NCBI GenBank assembly: GCA_964588985.1 | Contig: CAZPQW010000005.1 | Span: 102,681-166,680 of the forward strand | Source: an uncultured Solirubrobacteraceae bacterium | GTDB taxonomy: Bacteria; Actinomycetota; Thermoleophilia; Solirubrobacterales; Solirubrobacteraceae | Direction of reading: 5' to 3' | Length of the DNA stretch: 64,000 nucleotides | In this document: positions 1 through 18,191 of the stretch, piece after piece | Numbering within the stretch: the stretch's first letter is position 1 | How the letters are laid out: every line of letters starts with the position of its first letter | Translations under genes and position numbers: made by a program | Notes under the pieces: generated by a model | Seen by the model: only the letters and a program-made list of their open reading frames with translations | What the model was told of the DNA's origin: nothing | The model's database searches: none

Positions 1-1460
1 TCCTCCGCCGGCCGATCCGCCAGCTCGTGCCCGCGACCCTCGTGCGCGCGCGCCTGCACCAGCTCCCACCCCGGGCTTTCGCGTGTGTCCAGCAGCTTGC
101 CGGGATGGAAGTCCACGCGCGGGGTCACCGGGCGCGGCACGAAGTAGCCCAACGCCACCTGACCCGCGATCCGCTCCGCCGAGCCGAGCCGGCGCACGAC
201 GTCCTGCCCGCGCGGGTCCTGCTCGATCTGCTCCTGCAGCCGCTCGATCAGGTCGTCGATCAGCAGCGCCCCCTCCTCGCTCGAGGCGACCGCGCGCTTC
301 TGGTGGGAGACCATCCCGTGGAAGATGTCGCCGGTCGGATGCATGCCTTCGCCGCCGGTGCTCATCAGGCGCGCCATCAGCTGGCGTCTGCAGGTGACGT
401 GTGCGACCCACTCCGCACCGCACACCTGTACCGAGGTCATGCCCTCCAGGCCCGGCGCCGCCATCCAGTACGCGAGCGCGCGCATGTGCTGGGTGGGCAG
501 ATCGTCGCCGCGCACGAGCGGGAATTCGTCGAAGTCCTCGCGCTCGGTTGGGTAGATCACCACGCCGTCCTCGCGCCGGCGCAGCAGCCCTTCGCGCAGG
601 CCGCACGCGGTCAGCTCGGCCGCCTCGGAGAGGAAGTCCGACTCGAAGAACACGCGGTCGAAGGCGATTCCCAGCCGCTGCAGCGTCTTGCGCTGCCCCG
701 CGATCACCCACGCGCGCGTCTTGTACCAGAGCTCCAGCGCCTCGCGGTCCCCGGAGAGCACTCGCCGCAGCAGCTGGTCGGCGTCGTCGTCGCGCATCGT
801 CAGCTCGCGCGTGAGGGAGTCCTCGGGCTGCTCGGTGGAGCCACCGTTGAAGGATCGGCCCGCCGCGACGTACTCGGCGTAGCAGCAGCCCACGAAGTGG
901 TCGCTCTTCTCGTTGCGGTCCGGCCACGCCTGCGCGTGGCGGCCGCTCTTCATCACCCCGGCCATCGCCTCGCCCATGCTGCGCCCGGCGTCTGAGATCA
1001 GCGCGCGGCGCTCGACCTGGCCGCCGGCCTGGGTCAGGGCCGCGGCGAGCGCGTTGCCGATCGCGAGGTTGCGCAGGTGCCCGACGTGCAGCGCCTTGGT
1101 CGCGTTGGCGTCCCAGAACTGCACCGAGAAGCGTCGCCCGCGCGCGAGGTCGGAGAGCCGCTCCTCGCCGCTGTCGCCTTCCCGCAGCGCGGTCCCCTGA
1201 GTTTCGATCCAGTCGTCTGACAGCCGCAGCTCCACGCCCGCGTCGGTGCGCGTCGCGCGCTCTACCCACGGCTCGCGTTCGATCCGCTCGAGCGCGTCGA
1301 GCGATGCCGCGTCATCGCGCCAGACGGGTGAACGTGGGACGAGCTTGACGTCGAAGCGGGCGTTCGGACGCAGCGGCGTGCGGGCAGCCCACAGTCCGCC
1401 CGTCTCGCCCTGCTCGGGCAGTTCCTCGAAGTAGTCGAAAAGGTTGGTGGCCGTCAGCAT
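1..1460 (-). CDS. Divergent arginyl-tRNA synthetase paralog (class I aaRS), 3' end runs off the window
   Basis: Manual translation from ATG at 1460 is open to the window edge (486 codons; absent from the ORF track). MLTATNLF...SVQFWDANATKALHVGHLRNLAIG (HIGH motif), NEKSDHFVGCCY, LGIAFDRVFFESD, RGDDLPTQHMRALAYW, QVCGAEWVAH and FHGMVSHQKRAVASSEEG are collinear with ArgRS motifs. Confidence 0.9.
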   Translation of the reverse strand, partial: MLTATNLFDYFEELPEQGETGGLWAARTPLRPNARFDVKLVPRSPVWRDDAASLDALERIEREPWVERATRTDAGVELRLSDDWIETQGTALREGDSGEERLSDLARGRRFSVQFWDANATKALHVGHLRNLAIGNALAAALTQAGGQVERRALISDAGRSMGEAMAGVMKSGRHAQAWPDRNEKSDHFVGCCYAEYVAAGRSFNGGSTEQPEDSLTRELTMRDDDADQLLRRVLSGDREALELWYKTRAWVIAGQRKTLQRLGIAFDRVFFESDFLSEAAELTACGLREGLLRRREDGVVIYPTEREDFDEFPLVRGDDLPTQHMRALAYWMAAPGLEGMTSVQVCGAEWVAHVTCRRQLMARLMSTGGEGMHPTGDIFHGMVSHQKRAVASSEEGALLIDDLIERLQEQIEQDPRGQDVVRRLGSAERIAGQVALGYFVPRPVTPRVDFHPGKLLDTRESPGWELVQARAHEGRGHELADRPAE

Positions 1461-1490: not shown

Positions 1491-1563
1491 TGCACCAGCC
1501 GGGGCTCGAACCCGGATCGACGGCGTTTAAGGCCGCTCCCTTAACCGATTAGGGCACTGGTGC
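1491..1563 (-). tRNA. Atypical tRNA, anticodon UAA (reads UUA), short variable loop, CCA not encoded
   Basis: Minus strand folds as a full cloverleaf: GCACCAG TG CCCT AATCGGTTA AGGG A GCGGC CT-TAA-AC GCCGT CGAT CCGGG TTCGAGC CCCGG CTGGTGC A (73 nt). U8, A14, G18G19, U33, purine 37 and TTCGA are all present. Confidence 0.93.
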
Positions 1564-1733
1564 TCAAAACCCGACAGCAACCAGCCGAGCTTCCGGTTTG
1601 GTTTGCGTAGTCGGGCTGCGGGGAGCACCATAAGGCTCGTCGTGGAGAACCGCACACTTCGAAAAACACCGGTAGGACAAGCCTCCAATACACAGGCAGG
1701 AAGGCCATTTTGAGCATGCACGAGGAGCAGCAC

Positions 1734-3137
1734 ATGTCTCTGTCTCTCCCCCCTGGCCCACGCATGCCGAGCGCGCTTCAGGCGCTCGGCTGGGCGCTGC
1801 GACCGCTGCCGTTCATGGAGCGCTGCAACAACCATTACGGTGAAATCTTCACCCTGCGCGTTCGTCGCGGTCGTCCCTGGGTTGTCCTCACGGATCCGGC
1901 GGATGTCAAGCTGCTGTTCACGACCGACGCGAGCGCGGTGCGCGCGGGAGCGGTCGCGGCCAGCCCGGTACTCGAGCCGCTGCTGGGCTCACGGTCGGTG
2001 ATGCTGCTCGACGAGCCCGAGCACATGACACACCGCAAGCTGATGCTGCCCGCGTTCCGCATCACGCGCATGAGCGCCTATGACAACCTGATCACCCGCG
2101 TGGCCCGTCGAGAGATCTCGAAGTGGCCGATCGGCGAGCCGTTCGCGCTGTGGCCGCGCATGCAGGCGATCACCACAGAGGTGATCCTCCGCGCCGTGTT
2201 CGGCCCTCTGGAGGAGCCCCGGTTGGAGCATCTGAGCGGCCTGCTGAGACAGATGACCGCGCAGCTGAACGATCCGCGCCGCCTGGCGATCCTGACCGCC
2301 GTGGGCCCGGGGCGACTCTCTCACAGCGAGCGACTTCGCTCGGTGATGCGCCCGGTGGAGAGCGCGGTGCTCGAGGAGGTGCGCCGACGGCGTGCTTCAC
2401 CCAACGGCGCAGCCTCGCAGGACATCCTCGCGATGCTCGAGCGCGCACACGACCAGGGTGGCTCGCCGATGGACGAGAAGCAGGTGCGCGACGAAGTCCT
2501 CACACTGCTCTCCGACGGTCCGACCGCCACCTCGCTCGCGTGGGCATTCGAGTGCCTCATGCGCCATCCCGAGAAGCTCGCCCGACTGCGCAAGGAGGCC
2601 CTCGCGGGTCGCGAGTACAGCTATGCGGACGCGGTCGCCAAGGAGACGCTGCGCCTGTGCCCGGTGGTGCCCCTGGTGATGCGCGAGCTGACCCAGCCGA
2701 TGCGCATCCGCGGCTACACGCTGCCCGCGGGAGTCATCGTCGCCGCGGGCGTTTACCTGATTCACCGTCGCGAGGACATCTATCCGCAATCGCGCACTTT
2801 CCTACCTGAGCGCTTCCTCGACCAGAACGCCCCCACCTACGCGTGGATTCCCTTCGGCGGAGGAGTGAGACGCTGCCTCGCGGCCAACTTCGCCCAGCTC
2901 ACGATCAGGCGAGTGATGCAGACCGTGCTCACCGAGGTGGACCTGCAGGCGGTCTCCACATCCGGATCCGAGCACGCGGCGAGAAGCTCAGTCGCGTTCG
3001 TCCCCAACGAGCAGGCGATGGCGATCGTCACTCGACGGATCGGATCTCCCACCGACGAGCGGCTCGAGGATCCGGTCGGCGACGAGACCGAGCGAGCCGA
3101 GGGTCGAGAATCCGGGGCCCTGGCCGAGGCCGGCTAG
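1734..3137 (+). CDS. Cytochrome P450 with atypical I-helix
   Basis: LPPGP N-terminus, ExxR (ETLR), PERF, heme motif FGGGVRRCLA. RBS GAGGAG precedes ATG 1734. Confidence 0.93.
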   Translation: MSLSLPPGPRMPSALQALGWALRPLPFMERCNNHYGEIFTLRVRRGRPWVVLTDPADVKLLFTTDASAVRAGAVAASPVLEPLLGSRSVMLLDEPEHMTHRKLMLPAFRITRMSAYDNLITRVARREISKWPIGEPFALWPRMQAITTEVILRAVFGPLEEPRLEHLSGLLRQMTAQLNDPRRLAILTAVGPGRLSHSERLRSVMRPVESAVLEEVRRRRASPNGAASQDILAMLERAHDQGGSPMDEKQVRDEVLTLLSDGPTATSLAWAFECLMRHPEKLARLRKEALAGREYSYADAVAKETLRLCPVVPLVMRELTQPMRIRGYTLPAGVIVAAGVYLIHRREDIYPQSRTFLPERFLDQNAPTYAWIPFGGGVRRCLAANFAQLTIRRVMQTVLTEVDLQAVSTSGSEHAARSSVAFVPNEQAMAIVTRRIGSPTDERLEDPVGDETERAEGRESGALAEAG

Positions 3138-4334
3138 CCCGGGCACCTGCAGCAGCGGGCGCACGCCGCTGAGCTCCAGGAATCGAGCCATGTTCACTTC
3201 TTCGCGTTTGTCGCCTTCCCAAAGCGGCCCGGTCACCCGTTCGATCTCGCGCCGCGCCGGATCGGACAGCAGACTGCGCAGCTGCTCGAGCAGATCGAAG
3301 CCGGTCGAGTTGATCACGTAGTCGTGGCGCGCCGTCTCGGCGCCCGCGACCGACTCGTAGTTGACGCACACCCCCTCGCCGTTCGGAGCGGACGCGATGC
3401 GCTCGACGCGCCCGAGCACGAAGCGACAGCGCTCGTCCCACGCGAAGCGCGCGAGACGCTCCGGCCCGAATACTCCGCGATCGGTGTGATTGATGAAGTC
3501 GCGACGCGTATCGACGCTGAGCGTCTCCCAGGCGACATTGTCGGGATTGGAGAAGACGCGATTCTCCAAGAAGCTCTCCAGCCGACTCAGAGGCAGATTG
3601 GAGGTGTACACCGATATGTACGCGTCGGGACGCAGGTTGCGCACGAATTCGATGCAGCTGAGCGCGCTCTCCCCGCCACCCACGATCGCGATGTCGGAGC
3701 TCTGCTCGACCGGCGCGTGCGCGATCGCGATGCGCCCGCTGTCGCAGTCGAGCACGCGCTGCGCGATCTGGGGATCATGGGGGATGCCGCGATTGACCCC
3801 GGGGCCGGTCAGCGCGAACGCCCCGCACGCGTACTGGGACGCGGCGGGCGCACCGGCGACGTCCACGATCCAGCGTTCGCCGTCGTCGCTCAGCGACAGT
3901 CGTGCGACACGCCCGTTGACGAGCGTCACTCCCTCGGTGGCGCGAGTGAGCACCCACGCAAGGTATGCGCCGTATTCGCGGCGCTGCACGGACGGTTCGC
4001 CGGCGTCCACCCAGCGTGAGTAGTCGCCTTTCTCGATCAGGTAGCGATGCCAGGAGAACGCCATCGACGCGATGTCCACTTCCGCTCCGGCGGAGCCGAA
4101 CGCGCATGCGCTCTGGTACGGGTAGCCGACGTCTTTGGAGGGGGTGATCGCGAGCACCTCCCTGCTCGTGGTGATGCCGTTTCCGTCGACCCACGCGGCC
4201 GCCGGCCCGGTCGCCTCGACGAGCGTCATCCTGATCGGACCCAGGCCGAGACTGTTGAGCACGTGCACCTTCATCGCGATCGCGGTGCCCTTGGCTCCGG
4301 CGCCGACGACGAGCAGGTCGGTGTTGTTCACCAC
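2988..4334 (-). CDS. Flavin-dependent lysine/ornithine N-monooxygenase (MbtG/IucD/SidA family)
   Basis: VVGAGAKG FAD motif, TPSKDVGYPY, IVGGGESA NADPH motif, TDRGVF and GQGPGF, collinear with mycobacterial MbtG. GTG start at 4334 or 4331 inferred. Confidence 0.88.
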   Translation of the reverse strand: MVNNTDLLVVGAGAKGTAIAMKVHVLNSLGLGPIRMTLVEATGPAAAWVDGNGITTSREVLAITPSKDVGYPYQSACAFGSAGAEVDIASMAFSWHRYLIEKGDYSRWVDAGEPSVQRREYGAYLAWVLTRATEGVTLVNGRVARLSLSDDGERWIVDVAGAPAASQYACGAFALTGPGVNRGIPHDPQIAQRVLDCDSGRIAIAHAPVEQSSDIAIVGGGESALSCIEFVRNLRPDAYISVYTSNLPLSRLESFLENRVFSNPDNVAWETLSVDTRRDFINHTDRGVFGPERLARFAWDERCRFVLGRVERIASAPNGEGVCVNYESVAGAETARHDYVINSTGFDLLEQLRSLLSDPARREIERVTGPLWEGDKREEVNMARFLELSGVRPLLQVPGLAGLGQGPGFSTLGSLGLVADRILEPLVGGRSDPSSDDRHRLLVGDERD

Positions 4335-4413
4335 GTCGCAGATCCTCCGGTCGAAGCTTGTCGTGCTCTCGTGCAAACGGCACGCCGAGTTATAGGGAGA
4401 AGGGCGACGTGGC

Positions 4414-4992
4414 TCAATGTGAGACCGGAACGCTCCCCCCGCAGGTCGGGCAAACCACCGTGTTCGCGTCGGCATCCGGCGTGGACGGATCGCTCCCGTC
4501 GTTTCCATCACCGGCTTTGAGCGCACGGCGGCGGCCGCGCAGTTCCGCGCGGAGGTCCGCGACCGACAGTTTGTCGGCGCTCGCTCGCGCCAGCCAGTGG
4601 TCCTGGATCGCGACATCCAGCGCCGCGACCGTCGCGTGGTGACTCCAGGAGAGATTCTCCCTACGTCGGGAGATGTCGAAGCGCGACGCGACGTACACCA
4701 TGTTCATCAGGGATTGGACGTCGTATCCGGTGAGCTTCACCGCTCTCGTGTAGCGCTCGCCGAAGCGCGCGTTGCCGTAGTTGATCCAGTCGCCCAGCCA
4801 CCATTGGCTGCAGCGACCGATCTCGCCGAAGCGACGCCCCAACGCCGACCACTCGGCCAGGCCGACCTCGCCGCCGGGAACCCAGCCCACCTGTGTCAGC
4901 TCTGGAGTAGTCCGCGCCGGCCTCACATGAGGTCGTTCACGCGCAGTCGCTTGCCCGGCACCGTCTGTCGTCTGTGACAAGGCGGAAGTCAC
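4414..4992 (-). CDS. LmbU-family transcriptional regulator
   Basis: WWLGDWINYG..RFGERY..A...TGYDVQSLMN..YVASRF..SRRRENLSWSHHA.VAAL signature. Strong RBS GAGGAGG before GTG. Confidence 0.85.
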   Translation of the reverse strand: MTSALSQTTDGAGQATARERPHVRPARTTPELTQVGWVPGGEVGLAEWSALGRRFGEIGRCSQWWLGDWINYGNARFGERYTRAVKLTGYDVQSLMNMVYVASRFDISRRRENLSWSHHATVAALDVAIQDHWLARASADKLSVADLRAELRGRRRALKAGDGNDGSDPSTPDADANTVVCPTCGGSVPVSH

Positions 4993-5184: not shown

Positions 5185-6486
5185 TCAGTCGTTCGCGGTG
5201 ACGGTCTCGAGCAGCTCCGCGAAGCGCTCACGCGAGCGCGCGCGGCGCGTCGGCAGGTGTTCGCTCGGCACACCGTCCGCGGGTGGCGCGTAGCCGTTGA
5301 GGATGTGGCGCGCGACGGACTGGCGGTGCACCTCGTCGGGACCGTCGTAGATGCGCGCGGCGCGCGCGAAACGATACATCTGCTCGAGCGGCAGGTCGGT
5401 GGAGTAGCCGAGCGAGCCGTGCAACTGCAGCGCCCGATCGACCACGTCGTGGAGCACCTTCGCGCCGTAGAACTTGATCAGCGCGACGTCGGTGCGCGCG
5501 GCGCTCGCGCCCTGTGTGTCCATCACCCACGCGGCGTGCAGCGTCATCAGGCGTGCGGCCTGCATCTCGGCGGCGCTGTCGGCGATCCAGTTCTGCACGG
5601 TCTGCTTCTGCGCGAGCAGCGAGCCGTGGGCTTCTCTATATGTGGCGCGCTCGCACATCATGTCGAACGCGCGGCGCGCGACCCCGAGCCAGCGCATGCA
5701 GTGGTGGATGCGCCCGGGCCCGAGGCGGTGCTGGGCGAGCACGAAGCCCTCGCCCTCGCCGCCGAGCAGCGCCTCCGGGCCGACGCGCACGTCGCTGTAG
5801 AGGATTTCCGAGTGCCCGCCGTAGCCGCCGAAGTGCTCCGCGGGGTGCTCCATCGTGGGGACGTCGCGCACGATGTCGACGCCCGGCATGTCACTCGGGA
5901 CGATGAACATGGACGCGCGCTGCGACGGTCGCGCGTCGGGGTTGGTGACGGCCATCACGATCAGGAAGTCGGCGATCGAGCCGTTGGAGGAGAACCACTT
6001 CTTGCCGTCGAGCACCCAGCCGTCGCCGTCGCGCACCGCGCGCGTCTTCAGCTGCGTGGGGTCGGAGCCCGGCGTGTGCGGCTCGGTCATCGAGAACGCG
6101 CTGCGCAGGTCGCCCGCGAGCAGCGGGTGCAGCCAGCGGTCCTTCTGCTCGGGCGTGCCCGCCATAGCGAGGATCTCCGAGTTGCCGGAGTCCGGCGCGG
6201 CGTTGCCGAACGCGAGCGGCGCGATCGGCGAGGTGCCGAGGATCTCGTGCATCAGCCCGAGCTTCACCTGCCCCATCCCCTGGCCGCCGAGCTCGGGCGG
6301 CAGATGCGTCGCCCACAGCCCGCGCGCCTTGACCTGCTCCTGCAGCGGCGCGATCGCACGGCTGAGGCCATCGAGACCCAGCTCCGGCCAGATCGCCTCC
6401 AGCGGCCAGATCTCGGTGCGCACGAACTCCGCCATCCAGTCGAGCTGCTCCTGGTAGTCGGCGTCGGTGGAGAAGTCCCAGCTCAT
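5185..6486 (-). CDS. Acyl-CoA dehydrogenase
   Basis: FSMTEP..GSD, GKKWFSSNG, RLGPGRIHHCMR, RIYDGPDEVH. Start MSWDFST. Confidence 0.93.
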   Translation of the reverse strand: MSWDFSTDADYQEQLDWMAEFVRTEIWPLEAIWPELGLDGLSRAIAPLQEQVKARGLWATHLPPELGGQGMGQVKLGLMHEILGTSPIAPLAFGNAAPDSGNSEILAMAGTPEQKDRWLHPLLAGDLRSAFSMTEPHTPGSDPTQLKTRAVRDGDGWVLDGKKWFSSNGSIADFLIVMAVTNPDARPSQRASMFIVPSDMPGVDIVRDVPTMEHPAEHFGGYGGHSEILYSDVRVGPEALLGGEGEGFVLAQHRLGPGRIHHCMRWLGVARRAFDMMCERATYREAHGSLLAQKQTVQNWIADSAAEMQAARLMTLHAAWVMDTQGASAARTDVALIKFYGAKVLHDVVDRALQLHGSLGYSTDLPLEQMYRFARAARIYDGPDEVHRQSVARHILNGYAPPADGVPSEHLPTRRARSRERFAELLETVTAND

Positions 6487-15357: not shown

Positions 15358-16548
15358 TCACTCCTCGTCAAACGTCCCCAGCGGATGGTTCTCGCTCACG
15401 AACTCAGCGAACAGCGGCACGGTGAAGTCAAGCTGGCCTCGACGCGGCGCCCAGATCAAACCCTTGTTGATGAGGGCGTCCCGGTGGATCGAGACCCCGC
15501 GCTGGTCCTTCGCTCCGTAGGCGTGGGCGATGTCTGCCGAGCGATACGGCGGACCCTCGACGGACGCCATCGCGGCGAGGTAGCGCTGCTCGGCGTCGGT
15601 TGCCAGCTGGAAGCGAGTGCCGAAGAAGTTGCGGGCCAGCGATTCCGAGACGATCTCGCGGACGGTGTCGACGTCGGCGGTGGTGATCGGAGAGGTCTCA
15701 GCATGGTTCCACAGCTCGAGGCCGTATTCCTGGATGAAGTACGGATAGCCGGCGGCTTCCTCCACGACCTGCAGAGCGGCGGGCTCCTCGTAGCTGACGC
15801 CGCGCGTGGCCGCCGGCGCGATCAGGGCGGAGCGGGCGGCGGGAGGGCTGAGACGACCGAGCTCGTGGTACTGGAATAGGCGATCGGCGTAGGGCTTGGC
15901 GGACATCAACCGAGTCTGCAGGTCCGGCAGGCCCGCAGCGACCATCGCCACGGGGAGCGAATTGCGGCTGACGGCCTGAAATGCGATGCACAGCGCGGCG
16001 AGTGAGGCGGAGTCGAGATTGTGCATCTCGTCAATCAGGAAGAGAGCGCCGGCGCCTGTCGTCTGGGCGACCTCACCGATCTCCTTGATCAGATCCGTGA
16101 GGTCCTGCTCCGGATCGCCCGAGTCGGCGATCCCGGTTGCGGCCTGGACGTCGAGCTTGAGCTGCACGCCCGCTGGCGCCACGATGCTGAACGCCTTGAC
16201 CACACCCAGTGCGCGATCTACACGGCTCTTGATCCGATGCTTGCGGCTCATCTCGCGCAGCAGGCGTGCGGCCATCCGCGCGAACGTGACACGGAAGTCG
16301 GGTTGGGATCCGACCTCTTGGACATCGGTAGTCGCCCACCCAGCCTCTGTTGCGAGCACATCCAGCTCCATCAGCAGCACCGTCTTGCCCACTCCACGCA
16401 GGCCCGAGTAGATCAGGCTACGCTCGTAGCGTTTGTCGGCGAGACGTTCGAGCAGAGATTGGAAGTTCTCCAGCTCGTCGCCGCGACCGCTGAGAGTCGG
16501 CGGCTTGCGCCCGGCTCCGGGGGTATAGGGGTTCTCGCGCTTCTGCAT
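15358..16548 (-). CDS. AAA-type ATP-binding protein with probable C-terminal winged helix
   Basis: NPYTPGAG..P..LSGR, Walker A GLRGVGKT, Walker B FLIDEMH, GYPYFIQEYG, C-terminal RDALINKGLIWAPRRG. Confidence 0.85.
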   Translation of the reverse strand: MQKRENPYTPGAGRKPPTLSGRGDELENFQSLLERLADKRYERSLIYSGLRGVGKTVLLMELDVLATEAGWATTDVQEVGSQPDFRVTFARMAARLLREMSRKHRIKSRVDRALGVVKAFSIVAPAGVQLKLDVQAATGIADSGDPEQDLTDLIKEIGEVAQTTGAGALFLIDEMHNLDSASLAALCIAFQAVSRNSLPVAMVAAGLPDLQTRLMSAKPYADRLFQYHELGRLSPPAARSALIAPAATRGVSYEEPAALQVVEEAAGYPYFIQEYGLELWNHAETSPITTADVDTVREIVSESLARNFFGTRFQLATDAEQRYLAAMASVEGPPYRSADIAHAYGAKDQRGVSIHRDALINKGLIWAPRRGQLDFTVPLFAEFVSENHPLGTFDEE

Positions 16549-16566
16549 TGGAGGCCACTTTCTGCA

Positions 16567-16672
16567 GCTTTCTATGGACCGATGATTACTCGCTAGAAAG
16601 CTATAGGGATTCGTCTGGCCGCTCAAGTCATGCAGCTGCCGAGGCTAGCCCCTATCAGGCTTTCTATGGACC
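16567..16672. repeat. 14-bp direct repeat pair with a partial inverted copy, upstream of the ATPase gene
   Basis: GCTTTCTATGGACC at 16567-16580 and 16659-16672. TAGAAAGC (inverted copy of the first 8 nt) at 16594-16601. Confidence 0.7.
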
Positions 16673-17059
16673 CTTCTTTACTTTAGAGAAAGACATAGAC
16701 TGCCCCCTGCTTCCCCGCATGCGCGCCGTGGCGGCGCACTGATCGTCGCTCGCGACCCGGTGCATTCGCACTGGTTCTCCACCGGCGGCGTCCTCGCGTA
16801 GGCTCCGCCCCAGCCCATGATTCGGCTCTAGGTCAACGGGAGCGCTCTCGAAGGACAAGCGCCCAAGCCAGACAGCCACGCTTGCAGCCAACAAGAGTAG
16901 TGTCGTCTCGGGGGTTGCCGGCGACTTGAACGCAAGCGCTACCACGGGCGGCAGTACACAGAATCCGACGCGCCCCGGTAGAAGTCGCCGATCTTCAACT
17001 CGATCGAGCAACTCCGTCTTGCGTGTCACTATCTTCGCTAGAAGAGTCGACACCCACAT
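16664..17059 (-). CDS. Hypothetical small membrane protein
   Basis: RBS GGAGG before ATG 17059 and two hydrophobic stretches. No recognisable family. Confidence 0.35.
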   Translation of the reverse strand: MWVSTLLAKIVTRKTELLDRVEDRRLLPGRVGFCVLPPVVALAFKSPATPETTLLLLAASVAVWLGRLSFESAPVDLEPNHGLGRSLREDAAGGEPVRMHRVASDDQCAATARMRGSRGQSMSFSKVKKGP

Positions 17060-17361
17060 GGCCAGCCCCCTCCAACAGATAAGCCTTCTGTAGATTTGTG
17101 GAAAAGAGAACGCTTCGACATACACGACCACCCTACTCAGCGCACCGATCATGGCGCACGCGAACCCCGCCTGCCGGCGAGTCGGAAGCGCACAGTGCGA
17201 TGCACGCCCCTCAACCCGTTGATCAGCAAGCTTAGGTGATTGTCGTAGCAGCATATTGCACTCAGATGAGTTTTGGTCGGACGACTTCTCGCGCAACCAG
17301 TTCTTGGTTTGCTTCAGGTTAGTTAATTAGGCCACTAACTAGCCACGGGCGGCCCTGCTAT

Positions 17362-17566
17362 CTAGTTAAGTGAAGCTAACTAACTAGTCATGCTTGTTTT
17401 AGTGTTAACCGGTTGTACTATTACTAGTTAAGTGAAGCTAACTAACTAGTCTTAGTCTTGCTTGTTTTGGTGTTAACCGGTTGTACTATTACTAGTTAAG
17501 TGAAGCTAACTAACTAGTCTTAGTCTTGCTTGTTTTGGTGTTAACCGGTTGTACTATTACTAGTTA
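17362..17566. repeat. AT-rich tandem repeat, 3 copies (62, 68, 68 bp) plus a partial fourth, internally palindromic
   Basis: Unit CTAGTTAAGTGAAGCTAACTAACTAGTCTTAGTCTTGCTTGTTTTGGTGTTAACCGGTTGTACTATTA starts at 17362 (shorter variant), 17424, 17492 and 17560 (partial). 24/68 GC. Confidence 0.95.
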
Positions 17567-18191
17567 GATACCAACTAGTCTCATTAAGACTCTTGTTGGC
17601 TTACAGTTAGACTCAAGATACTCTCGCAAACAACCGCGGGGGCCTCAGCGAGGGACGCTAAAGCTATTCCGCGACTTCCGTCAGCGTCGTCATCGCTAAG
17701 TGCGCCTTTTGATGCAATAGTGCCCCATGATTTCTACTATACGTATGCTACCCGCTCCGCGCAAGTCGAGTTTCTGACTTTCAAGGCCCGTCGCTAACGC
17801 AACCCCGGCCCCTACGCCTCAGCACTGGCCGTGCGTCCACTTTCGAAGCGGTGCCATGTCTCGTCCCGCCTCGGATCACCCCGCACGTTTCCGAGCGTGG
17901 CATGAACCCCCGCAAAGTCGATCTTGAGCTAATCCGCGCAAGAGGCGCGGTCATCAGCGGAGGAGCTGCTGCCAGCAGTTACGCACCGAGCAGCCGCGGT
18001 GGTATCTGGACTTGTTCTGCCTGGCGCGGTAGGGTCGAGTGCGACTGGGCCTCTTGAGTGCCGAGACTACTCGGCCCTATGTCCGCCGCGCTGCACATAC
18101 CCGGATAAGCGATGGGAAGGAACTTCGGATGCCCTTCACGCTCGAGCTGCACCCCCATGGGCCATCGCGCGCACCAGCTCCTCTCGCCTCG

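Follow-up and report, generated by a model that had tools for sequence, protein, structure and literature searches.

An arginyl-tRNA synthetase-derived enzyme and its private tRNA as a probable dedicated pair for a non-arginine, cluster-made amino acid in Solirubrobacterales

The window, that is, the whole stretch of 64,000 nucleotides analyzed here, originated from an uncultured Solirubrobacteraceae bacterium and starts within a gene for a paralogue of arginyl-tRNA synthetase (ArgRS), named ArgRSx, which is accompanied by a gene for a tRNA with the leucine anticodon UAA, named tRNAx. A canonical ArgRS (P0003) is encoded elsewhere in the same genome. The locus raised the question of which amino acid is handled by such an enzyme, and what purpose is served by a tRNA of its own.

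3-1460, minus strand: ArgRS-derived synthetase gene ArgRSx, first 486 codons (open reading frame and translation).
1491..1563, minus strand: tRNAx, a 73-nt class-I tRNA with the anticodon UAA (ARAGORN; Rfam RF00005).

The whole ArgRSx protein consists of 557 residues, and its gene extends 213 nt past the window start (genome G000, contig C5, L001:1285-2958, minus strand). The match of Pfam PF00750 was confined to residues 109-174, and the ArgRS equivalog model TIGR00456 gave 84.4 bits, which was below the cut-off of 261.65. The N-terminal domain, described as divergent in the initial annotation, was found to be so in sequence: neither Arg_tRNA_synt_N nor DALR_1 of Pfam matched ArgRSx, whereas both matched the canonical ArgRS of the same genome, though the predicted fold still aligned with ArgRS. 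The AF2 model (pLDDT 86.8) and the Foldseek search revealed the three-domain ArgRS architecture. The best Foldseek matches were the full-length ArgRS structures 1bs2 and 1f7u_A (E ~1e-19, TMq 0.70-0.71), with 585-591 aligned columns. By sequence, the best match in the PDB was the Thermus-type ArgRS 1iq0.

The residue equivalences were assigned by aligning the ArgRSx family profile to yeast ArgRS 1bs2 using HMMER. The following segments were compared with the canonical enzyme:

1077..1127, minus strand: remodelled amino-acid loop, the kept lysine and HIGH, residues 112-128, SVQFWDANATKALHVGH (alignments).
465..500, minus strand: helix matching the yeast Tyr347/Asp351 helix, residues 321-332, LPTQHMRALAYW (alignments).
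396..431, minus strand: residues 344-355, VQVCGAEWVAHV, with E350/W351 (alignments).
267..317, minus strand: KMSKS-equivalent loop without lysine (…KRAVASSEEGA), residues 382-398 (comparison with canonical ArgRS).

It had been proposed from inspection by eye that these motifs, apart from HIGH, were altered in ArgRSx, and the alignments agreed with this at every motif. The E(Y/F)SSPN-type loop, located at the expected place, reads SVQFWDANATKALHVGH in ArgRSx and LVEFVSANPTGPMHVGH in P0003, with Q114, W116, D117 and N119 corresponding to Glu148, Ser150, Ser151 and Asn153 of the yeast enzyme, respectively. The HIGH motif of the class-I Rossmann core (residues 125-128, yeast 159-162) was retained, and H125, G127 and H128 were invariant in 13/13 paralogs together with N119, R327, E350 and W351. 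The Tyr/Asp helix reads LPTQHMRALAYW versus EYTYFAPDIAYH; the equivalents of Tyr347/Asp351 were Q324/A328 in the MAFFT alignment and T323/R327 in that of HMMER, a one-residue shift between the aligners, and no acidic residue was present in the helix in either register. In the third motif (VQVCGAEWVAHV versus IDVWGADHHGYV), E350 and W351 replace D-H of the bacterial or Q-Q of the yeast enzyme (Gln374 and Gln375), at the place where the exchange of Gln for Trp had been noted by eye. The KMSKS-equivalent was lost (GMVSHQKRAVASSEEGA versus LVRSGERAQMSKRSGEF), with lysine absent from a loop that was disordered in the model (pLDDT <50 for residues 387-396). In these alignments, the arginine-pocket residues Glu148, Tyr347, Asp351 and Gln375 of the yeast enzyme had no identical counterparts in ArgRSx.

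The lysine upstream of HIGH (K122) was retained in ArgRSx. In the Thermus-type ArgRS, such a lysine compensates for the absent KMSKS. ArgRSx shares the lysine three residues before HIGH with 1iq0 and with metagenomic 'MVE(F/Y)SSPNTNKPLHLGH' ArgRS, but in those enzymes the Glu and the Ser-Ser-Pro-Asn loop are kept, and a neighbouring tRNA is mostly missing. The key substitutions were invariant across the homologs (13/13; W116 in 95/95 clade members), the dN/dS values were 0.14-0.55 in 15 pairs, which indicated purifying selection, at least 544 relatives were present in genome contigs, and the reading frames were intact. Since the substitutions were conserved and under purifying selection, they did not represent decay.

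The tRNAx gene is located 30 nt upstream of the ArgRSx start and matched Rfam RF00005 with 65.2 bits (E 5e-14). The identity of canonical tRNA-Arg is determined by the anticodon C35 and A20. tRNAx has U20 instead of A20, and the discriminator is A73; its D-loop reads AAUCGGUUA, while the canonical tRNA-Arg printed from the genome (4/4) have A20 after G18G19, in accordance with the earlier remark on the missing A20. Neither A20 nor anticodon position 35 appears to be needed by ArgRSx for the recognition of tRNAx. In an alignment of 47 distinct homologues, 99.4% of the cells in the cloverleaf were paired, and compensatory changes were observed at 10/21 pairs, a result matched by 0/500 shuffles. 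The cloverleaf is normal with respect to G18G19, the T-loop, U33 and A37. The T-stem pairs 49-65 CG, 50-64 CG and 51-63 GC were present in 45/47 distinct sequences, from which a value of about -10.3 kcal/mol was estimated by Table 2 of PMC3239215, corresponding to an ordinary-to-tight EF-Tu binder on that scale. The anticodon loop was invariant in 76/76 UAA-type tRNAx, with compensatory turnover in the neighbouring stem. In the UGU type, position 32 was mostly a purine, and 31-39 was unpaired in 4/47 distinct tRNAx sequences; by sequence, both features look relaxed for a decoder. An ordinary 87-nt tRNA-Leu(UAA) is also encoded in the genome of the window, and a normal class-II tRNA-Leu(UAA) was kept in 5/6 carrier genomes examined. 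When tRNA-Thr(UGU) of G000 was used as the query for its counterpart in the UGU-type genomes, the 15 loci fetched all proved to be tRNAs for Met, Ala, Lys or Val.

Further, the inheritance of the pair was followed. A tRNAx-type gene occurred in 105/115 loci encoding ArgRSx or its near relatives, with the anticodons UAA, UGU, AGU and UCU in 76, 19, 6 and 4 cases, respectively. In 60/79 genome loci, tRNAx was positioned 10-171 nt upstream of ArgRSx on the same strand. The paralogue and a foreign-anticodon tRNA share one locus, the canonical ArgRS being encoded elsewhere in the genome. Three anticodon changes were sufficient on the protein tree of 96 rows, 91 of which had a known anticodon. Between the enzymes of two sister subclades, UAA with 5 rows and UGU with 4 rows, 23 differences were fixed; none of these tracked the anticodon across clades, and S521 was a weak candidate.

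A wider ArgRS-like family of ~200 clusters at 50% identity was also analyzed. It has in common with ArgRSx the changes of Tyr to Q/E/H, Asp to A/R and Gln to W and the E-x-x-S-x-N loop, and it mostly retains 'xKSSxG' at the KMSKS-equivalent loop. Its members adjoin an A20-less tRNA(UCU), and AGA codons of the respective genomes align with Arg; a search of G143 and G169 for another tRNA(UCU) gave none. The wider family probably still uses arginine, and it suggests a second, unrecognised type of ArgRS that serves an A20-less tRNA-Arg(UCU). The search of 400 other genomes of the phylum gave 0 members at E 1e-40, a count uninformative about the range of the family, as only 3 candidates were scored per genome. 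Because most of the pocket changes are common to the wider family, the comparison with canonical ArgRS alone is not proof that arginine binding was lost. The features specific to the ArgRSx clade are W116 (Cys is the commonest residue there in the wider family), V352, Q/N/Y at position 114 and the loss of Lys from the 'KSS' loop. D117 is conserved except in the UGU clade, which bears G.

The pair was always located within a gene cluster conserved in Solirubrobacterales, which are soil actinobacteria. The cluster encodes aminodeoxychorismate synthase (PabAB), an AroQ chorismate mutase, a prephenate-decarboxylase-like (PDT-like) protein, a lysine-N6-hydroxylase-like N-oxygenase, a GNAT, a deacetylase and a P450. 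In 79 loci, ArgRSx and PabAB were recorded 79 times each, P450 in 74, GNAT and deacetylase in 70 each, the N-oxygenase in 64 and the PDT-like protein in 54; the gene set was retained though the order varied between families. The part of the cluster upstream of tRNAx includes:

1710..3137, plus strand: cytochrome P450, divergently transcribed (Pfam p450, E 4.5e-53; 74/79 loci).
2988..4616, minus strand: flavin N-monooxygenase, lysine N6-hydroxylase-like (Pfam PF13434; 64/79 loci).
4414..4992, minus strand: LmbU-family-like transcriptional regulator (NCBIfam NF038070, 122.5 bits, cut-off 125).

The LmbU-like regulator was present in 22/79 loci, and its association was limited to the window's own genus-level clade. 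The N-oxygenase aligned over residues 100-518 with PDB 4d7e, 'L-Lys monooxygenase' (E 1.8e-63). Its true start is probably near 4330, because the relatives align from about residue 94-118. The chorismate mutase matched Pfam CM_2 (E 1.5e-19), the deacetylase resembled acetylpolyamine amidohydrolase, and the acetyl-CoA loop of the GNAT was near-canonical. PabAB orthologues of at least 63% identity were found in carrier genomes only, and a separate PabAB of ~50% identity was present in at least three carriers (G196, G193 and G187). For the PDT-like protein (~207 residues, PDT/BacA-like), sequence searches of Pfam, NCBIfam and the PDB gave nothing. Its nearest named Atlas cluster was 'prephenate decarboxylase', and its best PDB fold match was prephenate dehydratase 3mwb, for a moderate model of pLDDT 69 with 1/5 models well ahead. 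The profile scans of cluster ORFs, which covered a part of the ORFs of all loci, recovered neither an aminoacyl-tRNA transferase nor a cupin, and they gave no sign of RiPP or YcaO genes.

Because of this set of enzymes, the cluster points to a route via 4-amino-4-deoxyprephenate to a Phe-like amino acid. The PapABC route, which includes a PapC-type dehydrogenase, yields p-aminophenylalanine. As in PapABC, a fused PabA/PabB adjoins a small chorismate-mutase-like enzyme, but the PapC-type dehydrogenase is replaced by the PDT/BacA-like protein, and the N-oxygenase, GNAT, deacetylase and P450 go beyond PapABC. Small-molecule clusters typically contain a P450, an N-oxygenase, a GNAT and an LmbU-like regulator, as this one does, which counts against ribosomal reading. 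The likeness of the N-oxygenase to lysine hydroxylase fits the N-N bond pathways (PMC12376268).

A shift of specificity towards another amino acid had been put forward in the initial annotation. The conserved substitutions, the tRNA with neither an Arg anticodon nor A20 and the biosynthesis cluster favored it; the argument from the lost residues was weakened, as most of them are also missing from the wider family, found beside tRNA(UCU) where AGA is Arg, and as K122 was kept. With its place inside a cluster for amino-acid biosynthesis, the gene nevertheless has a changed amino-acid specificity as its likeliest reading.

The codon usage was then compared. In the cluster genes of UAA-type loci, TTA occurred at 12 distinct sites, and the column was Leu-majority at 1/12 of these, versus 639/958 for the control rare Leu codons (TTG, CTA and CTT) of the same genes (Fisher 5.3e-5). 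TTA was found at columns of at least 90% Phe in 2/12 sites versus 4/958 controls (p 0.002). These sites were deacetylase 264 (L069) and PabAB 486 (L115), so that the Phe-column signal consists of two codons, each from one metagenome-assembled genome. In the AGU/UGU-type loci, TTA was placed at Leu columns in 3/5 sites. In six non-cluster genes of G000, Leu-majority columns were recorded at 4/6 TTA sites (two of them at 12/13 and 11/13) and at 42/55 control codons; therefore, UUA is still Leu in housekeeping genes.

The ACA:ACT ratio of the cluster genes was 0.24, 1.96 and 3.5 in the UGU-, UAA- and AGU-type loci, respectively, and that of the flanking genes was 0.23, 1.84 and 3.5; the ratio tracks the anticodon in a pattern of three phylogenetic data points. 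The cognate codons were not rarer in the cluster than in the flanks (TTA, p 0.62; UGU-type ACA, p 0.41; AGU-type ACT, p 0.60), and no conserved in-frame cognate codon marking a target gene was found. A PQQ-propeller lipoprotein was considered as an insertion target and rejected, being without a conserved cognate codon. At linker site 219 of PabAB, TTA was present in three related loci (two of the UAA type and L048, where the contig does not include the tRNA), and five related loci of the AGU type had ACT at this site. This covariation may be due to chance, because the linker is variable.

We proposed that ArgRSx and tRNAx are a dedicated pair for a non-arginine amino acid made by the cluster, and we consider this likely. 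The fold, the conservation, the co-inheritance of the pair, the cluster and the codon-column statistics were established directly. ArgRSx and tRNAx would descend from a second, translation-type ArgRS serving an A20-less tRNA-Arg(UCU). The pocket would have been remodelled in the ArgRSx clade, the tRNA anticodon would have come to match a rare sense codon (anticodon UAA in the window, UGU or AGU in the sister lineages), and the pair would have become fixed within a cluster making a non-standard amino acid. ArgRSx would bind tRNAx by its conserved arms (acceptor, D and T) instead of A20/C35, and the cluster-made amino acid would be activated by ArgRSx and then esterified to tRNAx. During expression of the cluster, EF-Tu and the ribosome would accept the charged tRNAx, which would read UUA and compete there with the normal tRNA-Leu(UAA). 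In this sequence of events, we infer the aminoacylation, the amino acid used and the ribosomal use of charged tRNAx.

The full proposal, in which the amino acid loaded by the pair is made by the cluster, is probably Phe-like and is read by the ribosome at UUA during cluster expression, falls somewhat short of an even chance in our judgment. Its most specific form, a natural switchable code extension in Solirubrobacterales by a Phe-like residue at the rarest sense codon, UUA, or at ACA/ACU in sister lineages, seems rather unlikely; the amino acid would derive from 4-amino-4-deoxyprephenate and would possibly be N-oxygenated or acetylated. With Sec and Pyl as the two earlier non-standard amino acids inserted during translation, it would be the third, and the first one at a sense codon. 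To our knowledge, no ArgRS-based pair is in use for code expansion, and a pair loading a cluster-made amino acid would offer a ready-made synthetase-tRNA pair on this scaffold. If the ribosome reads charged tRNAx, a sense codon would have been captured naturally for a new amino acid, and the growth of the code while the old meaning persists would become directly testable.

Alternatively, aminoacyl-tRNAx may serve solely as an activated intermediate of a small-molecule pathway, a tentative reading that we regard as the main rival and as quite possible. A hydroxylamine, for example N6-hydroxylysine, would receive the aminoacyl group, leading to N-O or N-N chemistry as in hydrazine synthetases or valanimycin, and ribosomal reading would be collateral, with the damage limited by an anticodon directed to rare codons. 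According to PMC2034488, tRNA is required for amino-acid activation by ArgRS, GluRS, GlnRS and class-I LysRS; as ArgRS-type enzymes need bound tRNA, a recruited ArgRS copy would have had to bring its tRNA. Such a pathway is also favored by the match of the N-oxygenase to 4d7e, by the core of hydrazine synthetases, reported in PMC12376268 as a lysine N6-hydroxylase with a class-I aaRS-like enzyme, and by the P450, GNAT, deacetylase and LmbU-like regulator usual in metabolite clusters. The Leu meaning of TTA in housekeeping genes and the relaxed look of the UGU-type anticodon loops agree with it as well. However, the general profiles applied to cluster ORFs picked up no cupin and no VlmA-like or Fem-like transferase, and no enzyme residue clearly co-varies with the anticodon. 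tRNAx retains all features of a decoder, including the EF-Tu-friendly T-stem, unlike tRNAs with non-translational roles, for which weak T-stems have been discussed. Neither the invariant UAA-type anticodon loop (76 copies) beside stem turnover nor TTA at two Phe columns is what a pathway intermediate would lead one to expect. We know of no pathway of secondary metabolism with a private tRNA as its cofactor or carrier, so a role restricted to metabolites would provide the first known one, as well as a new enzyme type beside lysine N-hydroxylases.

ArgRSx could also have remained arginine-specific, with Arg deliberately misplaced at UUA, ACA or ACU. The nearly identical pocket of the wider family, which probably charges Arg onto tRNA(UCU), the conserved acidic residues E350 (13/13) and D117 (outside the G-bearing UGU clade) and the precedent of an aaRS paralogue with a mis-anticodon tRNA, ProRSx/tRNAProX (PMC11415595 and PMC9437257), speak for such mistranslation. 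It is improbable all the same: the strict linkage to a seven- or eight-gene amino-acid pathway in 79/79 loci would be left unexplained, the changes W116 and V352 at pocket positions are invariant and clade-specific, an Arg-charged tRNA moved off AGA would cause harm with no evident gain, and Arg would be a poor substitute at the two Phe columns. Self-immunity by a resistant ArgRS against a cluster-made ArgRS inhibitor, as in tiarin clusters, is very improbable, even though inhibitor clusters can hold a resistant ArgRS and immunity GNATs, as described in bioRxiv 10.64898/2025.12.02.691738, and a GNAT is present here. The partner tRNA has no Arg anticodon, ArgRSx is far under the ArgRS equivalog cut-off, RiPP and YcaO genes were not seen among the ORFs scanned, and a normal ArgRS is available in the genome. 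The service of ArgRSx to host tRNA-Arg is unlikely given its pocket, score and private non-Arg tRNA. Finally, a decaying duplicate beside a tRNA by chance has a practically negligible probability; the weak match to the ArgRS family models, and nothing else, favors it against the purifying selection, the abundant relatives, the intact frames and the joint inheritance of ArgRSx with the tRNA and the cluster.

In the openly accessible papers, nothing was found that described a cluster of this kind with an ArgRS-like enzyme and its private tRNA. The pyl cassette consists of tRNA-Pyl, PylRS and pylBCD. Both systems bring a private tRNA, a synthetase and amino-acid-making genes together in one conserved locus. 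However, pyl uses the amber codon, and the ArgRSx system is built on the ArgRS scaffold with the sense anticodons UAA/UGU/AGU and a competing tRNA-Leu(UAA); moreover, marked target genes, unlike in pyl, were not found for ArgRSx/tRNAx, and the insertion is putative here. In the valanimycin pathway (VlmL/VlmA), the SerRS VlmL works with the housekeeping tRNA-Ser, alongside a dedicated transferase. The aaRS paralogue and N-hydroxylase in one cluster are alike, and the supply of aminoacyl-tRNA to N-O/N-N chemistry is putatively shared, but tRNAx is private and a transferase was unrecognised among the cluster ORFs scanned.

Hydrazine synthetases (PMC12376268 and PMC2922099) combine a lysine N6-hydroxylase with a cupin-MetRS-like enzyme. 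They resemble the ArgRSx system in the clustering of a lysine-N6-hydroxylase-like enzyme with a class-I aaRS-like enzyme and in variable pocket residues. They differ in the MetRS-like scaffold, the fused cupin and the lack of a tRNA gene, whereas the scaffold here is ArgRS-like, a tRNA gene is present and a cupin was not found among the ORFs scanned. As described in PMC11415595 and PMC9437257, the Streptomyces ProRSx/tRNAProX is a paralogue with a tRNA bearing the anticodon of another amino acid and coexists with the canonical enzyme. The co-encoded mis-anticodon tRNA and the clade-dependent anticodons, AGU among them, are shared with ArgRSx/tRNAx. ProRSx reportedly keeps its proline specificity, with no linked biosynthesis genes, whereas ArgRSx has a remodelled pocket and is fixed in a cluster.

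A diverged ArgRS paralogue (ArgRSx) and the private tRNA beside it (tRNAx) were found in a gene cluster composed as follows:

3-1460, minus strand: ArgRSx reading frame, extending past the window edge
1491-1563: tRNAx, 73 nt, anticodon UAA, 30 bases upstream of ArgRSx
Downstream of ArgRSx, same operon: PabA/PabB fusion (PabAB)
Downstream, same operon: GNAT
Downstream, same operon: acetylpolyamine-amidohydrolase-like deacetylase
Downstream, same operon: AroQ chorismate mutase, 95 aa
Downstream, same operon: prephenate dehydratase (PDT)-like protein, 207 aa
Upstream of ArgRSx, divergent: P450
Upstream, divergent: N-monooxygenase, matching 'L-Lys monooxygenase' 4d7e at E 1.8e-63

Based on all analyses, it was concluded that ArgRSx and tRNAx probably form a dedicated synthetase-tRNA pair for a non-arginine amino acid made by the cluster. 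No description of such a system was found in the literature searched.

The window corresponds to positions 102681-166680 of contig C5 in the source genome (G000), where the full ArgRSx was a 557-aa protein (P0002); a canonical ArgRS of 593 aa (P0003) was also encoded on contig C4. The two shared just 36% identity over 105 residues flanking the HIGH motif, the Pfam PF00750 match on ArgRSx was limited to aa 109-174, and its argS equivalog score was 84.4 bits at a cut-off of 261.65. An AlphaFold model built from a 48-row alignment (pLDDT 86.8, pTM 0.89) best matched the full-length ArgRS structures 1bs2, 1f7u_A, 2zue and 1iq0 (E ~1e-19), with CysRS and MshC ranking behind them (E ~1e-6).

The initial annotation had claimed that ArgRSx kept HIGH and lost the arginine-pocket residues and the KMSKS equivalent, and had inferred a shift in specificity. 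All four motif changes were indeed found by comparison with canonical ArgRS. The changed sites aligned with yeast Glu148, Asn153, Tyr347/Asp351 and Gln375; the register of the Tyr/Asp helix differed by one residue between two aligners, and the helix contained no acidic residue in either. HIGH, R327, E350 and W351, and also K122 and N119 were invariant in 13/13 paralogs, and pairwise dN/dS was 0.14-0.55 (15 pairs). Relatives were numerous as well: with 8000 candidates scored in the protein-cluster search, 2308 proteins matched at E ≤ 1e-3, the best 120 of them with 65-97% identity, and at least 544 relatives were confirmed in genome contigs among at least 600 matching stretches. The chance that ArgRSx is a decaying duplicate was therefore considered negligible. 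The best 79 of these confirmed loci all came from Solirubrobacterales MAGs, and the gene was present in 13 of 201 genomes sampled evenly from Solirubrobacterales.

An exhaustive search yielded 2196 relatives at E ≤ 1e-3, including 202 at E ≤ 1e-30. ArgRS-like relatives outside the ArgRSx clade are called the wider family here (proteins P0137-P0272); examples were located on the following contig stretches:

L027:9124-10848, minus strand
L028:4990-6690, minus strand
L134:5752-7542, plus strand
L157, gene near 6181

About 100 full-length representatives (30-40% identity) had in common the motifs F-C-D-P-N-x-T-K-A-L-H-x-G-H, P-T-(Q/E)-H-x-R, G-x-E-W and x-K-S-S-x-G, and their Glu148 equivalent was hypervariable. 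The genes adjoined tRNA(UCU), or tRNA(CCU) instead in L135, and A20 was absent from all four tRNA(UCU) sequences examined (L027, L028 and two more). A SAM methyltransferase often came next (directly 3' in L028, L134 and L157), and a large ABC-F ATPase was sometimes nearby (960-980 aa, adjacent in L027 and L134). No second tRNA(UCU) was found in genomes G143 and G169 using the canonical tRNA(UCU) of G000 as the query, and AGA codons aligned with Arg in their wider-family loci; the relatives are thus probably, judging from sequence, a second kind of true ArgRS, and may represent an unrecognised type dedicated to AGA decoding. Most of the 'lost' residues are therefore family traits. A changed specificity of ArgRSx was plausible, but the residues alone did not show it. 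Specific to the ArgRSx clade were W116 (95/95, with Cys in 52/102 of the wider family), V352, S215, V234, T248 and R296, Q, N or Y at position 114, and the absence of the loop lysine. In two metagenome contigs (L204, L205), six tandem tRNA-Arg genes (GCG twice, UCG, CCG, CCU, UCU) preceded a canonical Thermus-type ArgRS.

tRNAx had no long variable arm and was therefore not a leucine-type tRNA; an ordinary 87-nt tRNA-Leu(UAA) was also present in G000. Its Rfam score was 65.2 bits, and its closest class-I relative inside the genome was tRNA-Arg(CCU). A tRNAx-type gene occurred in 105 of 115 loci with ArgRSx or near relatives (UAA 76, UGU 19, AGU 6, UCU 4). Among the best 79 genome loci, 60 had it 10-171 nt ahead of ArgRSx in the same orientation, and nine had it ~5.7 kb off on the opposite strand; six had an AGU copy (Conexibacteraceae/Baekduia type), and four, all short or cut contigs, had none. 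Across 47 distinct sequences, 99.4% of cloverleaf cells were paired, and compensatory changes were observed in 10/21 pairs, which 0/500 shuffles matched. The acceptor stem, D-loop and T-arm were near-invariant, with U20 and never A20, as had been noted for the window copy. The anticodon stem varied by compensation, the anticodon loop being fixed inside each anticodon type. Three anticodon changes sufficed on a 96-row ArgRSx tree, and no ArgRSx residue clearly tracked the anticodon.

Two other tRNA calls by ARAGORN in G000 were atypical and may be false or else intron-bearing genes: a 'tRNA-???' of 97 nt at C27:31243-31339, whose anticodon was given as four bases (ggag), and a 94-nt 'tRNA-Arg(gcg)' at C4:150012-150105. 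Among the 48 tRNA calls of this 96%-complete assembly, tRNA-Glu was represented by the CUC type only, and tRNA-Glu(UUC) was not found.

The 79 loci contained PabAB (79), P450 (74), GNAT (70), the deacetylase (70), the N-oxygenase (64) and the PDT-like protein (54), many misses lying at contig ends; a second cluster family had the same gene set in changed order. The PDT-like protein had no sequence-family match; its nearest named Atlas cluster was 'prephenate decarboxylase', and its moderate model was closest to prephenate dehydratase 3mwb. Orthologues of the cluster PabAB (63% identity or more) were restricted to genomes with the ArgRSx cluster (carriers), at least three of which had an additional separate PabAB of ~50% identity, as tallied with the unpublished genomes G175 and G036 included. 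Enzyme family membership points to a route that would start from chorismate and pass through 4-amino-4-deoxychorismate and then 4-amino-4-deoxyprephenate, ending in an amino acid; either this product or lysine would be the substrate of N-oxygenation and of an acetylation/deacetylation step. A PQQ-type β-propeller lipoprotein gene (L054:16487-18184, minus strand, and homologues) accompanied clusters of each of the three anticodon types. Of the 171 loci searched, 53 had it next to or within the cluster, and every one of these was a cluster locus; in AGU-type loci it was flanked by the chorismate mutase gene and the tRNA gene.

It was further considered what charged tRNAx might be used for. That the ribosome reads it at UUA when the cluster is expressed was judged a serious possibility, somewhat short of even. 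In favour of this, the decoder anatomy of tRNAx was complete, none of the cluster ORFs scanned was recognised as an aminoacyl-tRNA transferase, and the T-stem was CG, CG, GC in 45/47 distinct sequences, for which a published T-stem table gives a predicted ~-10.3 kcal/mol (PMC3239215). The cluster genes of loci with a UAA-type tRNAx (237,988 codons) contained 24 TTA codons, and TTA occupied 12 sites. A Leu majority was seen at 1/12 of these sites versus 639/958 for TTG+CTA+CTT (p 5.3e-5), and 2/12 fell in ≥90%-Phe columns versus 4/958 control codons (p 0.002), both with small counts and non-independent relatives; at the latter two sites all other loci had Phe (85/85 and 92/92). Where tRNAx is not a UUA reader, 3/5 TTA sites were at Leu columns. 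The ACA:ACT ratio tracked the anticodon in cluster and flanking genes alike. However, in six other G000 genes 4/6 TTA sites were at Leu columns, in two of which Leu made up 12/13 and 11/13, control codons behaving alike (42/55), and tRNA-Leu(UAA) was kept in 5/6 carriers examined. Cluster and flank showed no codon difference, no target gene marked by a conserved cognate codon was found, and the anticodon loops of UGU-type tRNAx looked relaxed, all of which argues against ribosomal reading.

A purely metabolic carrier role of charged tRNAx, in analogy to the hydrazine synthetases (PMC12376268) and to valanimycin, was judged only slightly less likely than ribosomal reading. Arg-mistranslation by the pair was considered improbable, and a function of ArgRSx as immunity highly improbable.

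In the PabAB interdomain linker, columns 216 and 219 (e.g. L079, L050, L052) held 10 of the 11 ACT codons of AGU-type cluster genes, in five related loci, and site 219 was TTA in three related loci (UAA-type L050 and L052, and L048, with its tRNA off the contig). These sites might serve to sense tRNAx, or the pattern may have arisen by chance, the linker being variable.

Just beyond the window start (L016:11195-13892, contig C5), a MurD-type ligase adjoined a MurL-like UDP-MurNAc-L-Ala-L-Glu epimerase (NF041275, 424.7 bits, under the cut-off of 700), which suggests, at the level of sequence, that peptidoglycan synthesis in G000 adds L-Glu and then epimerises it. Within the window, GC content was 0.573 at 16001-18000 versus 0.66-0.73 in the rest, and this segment may be a foreign island.
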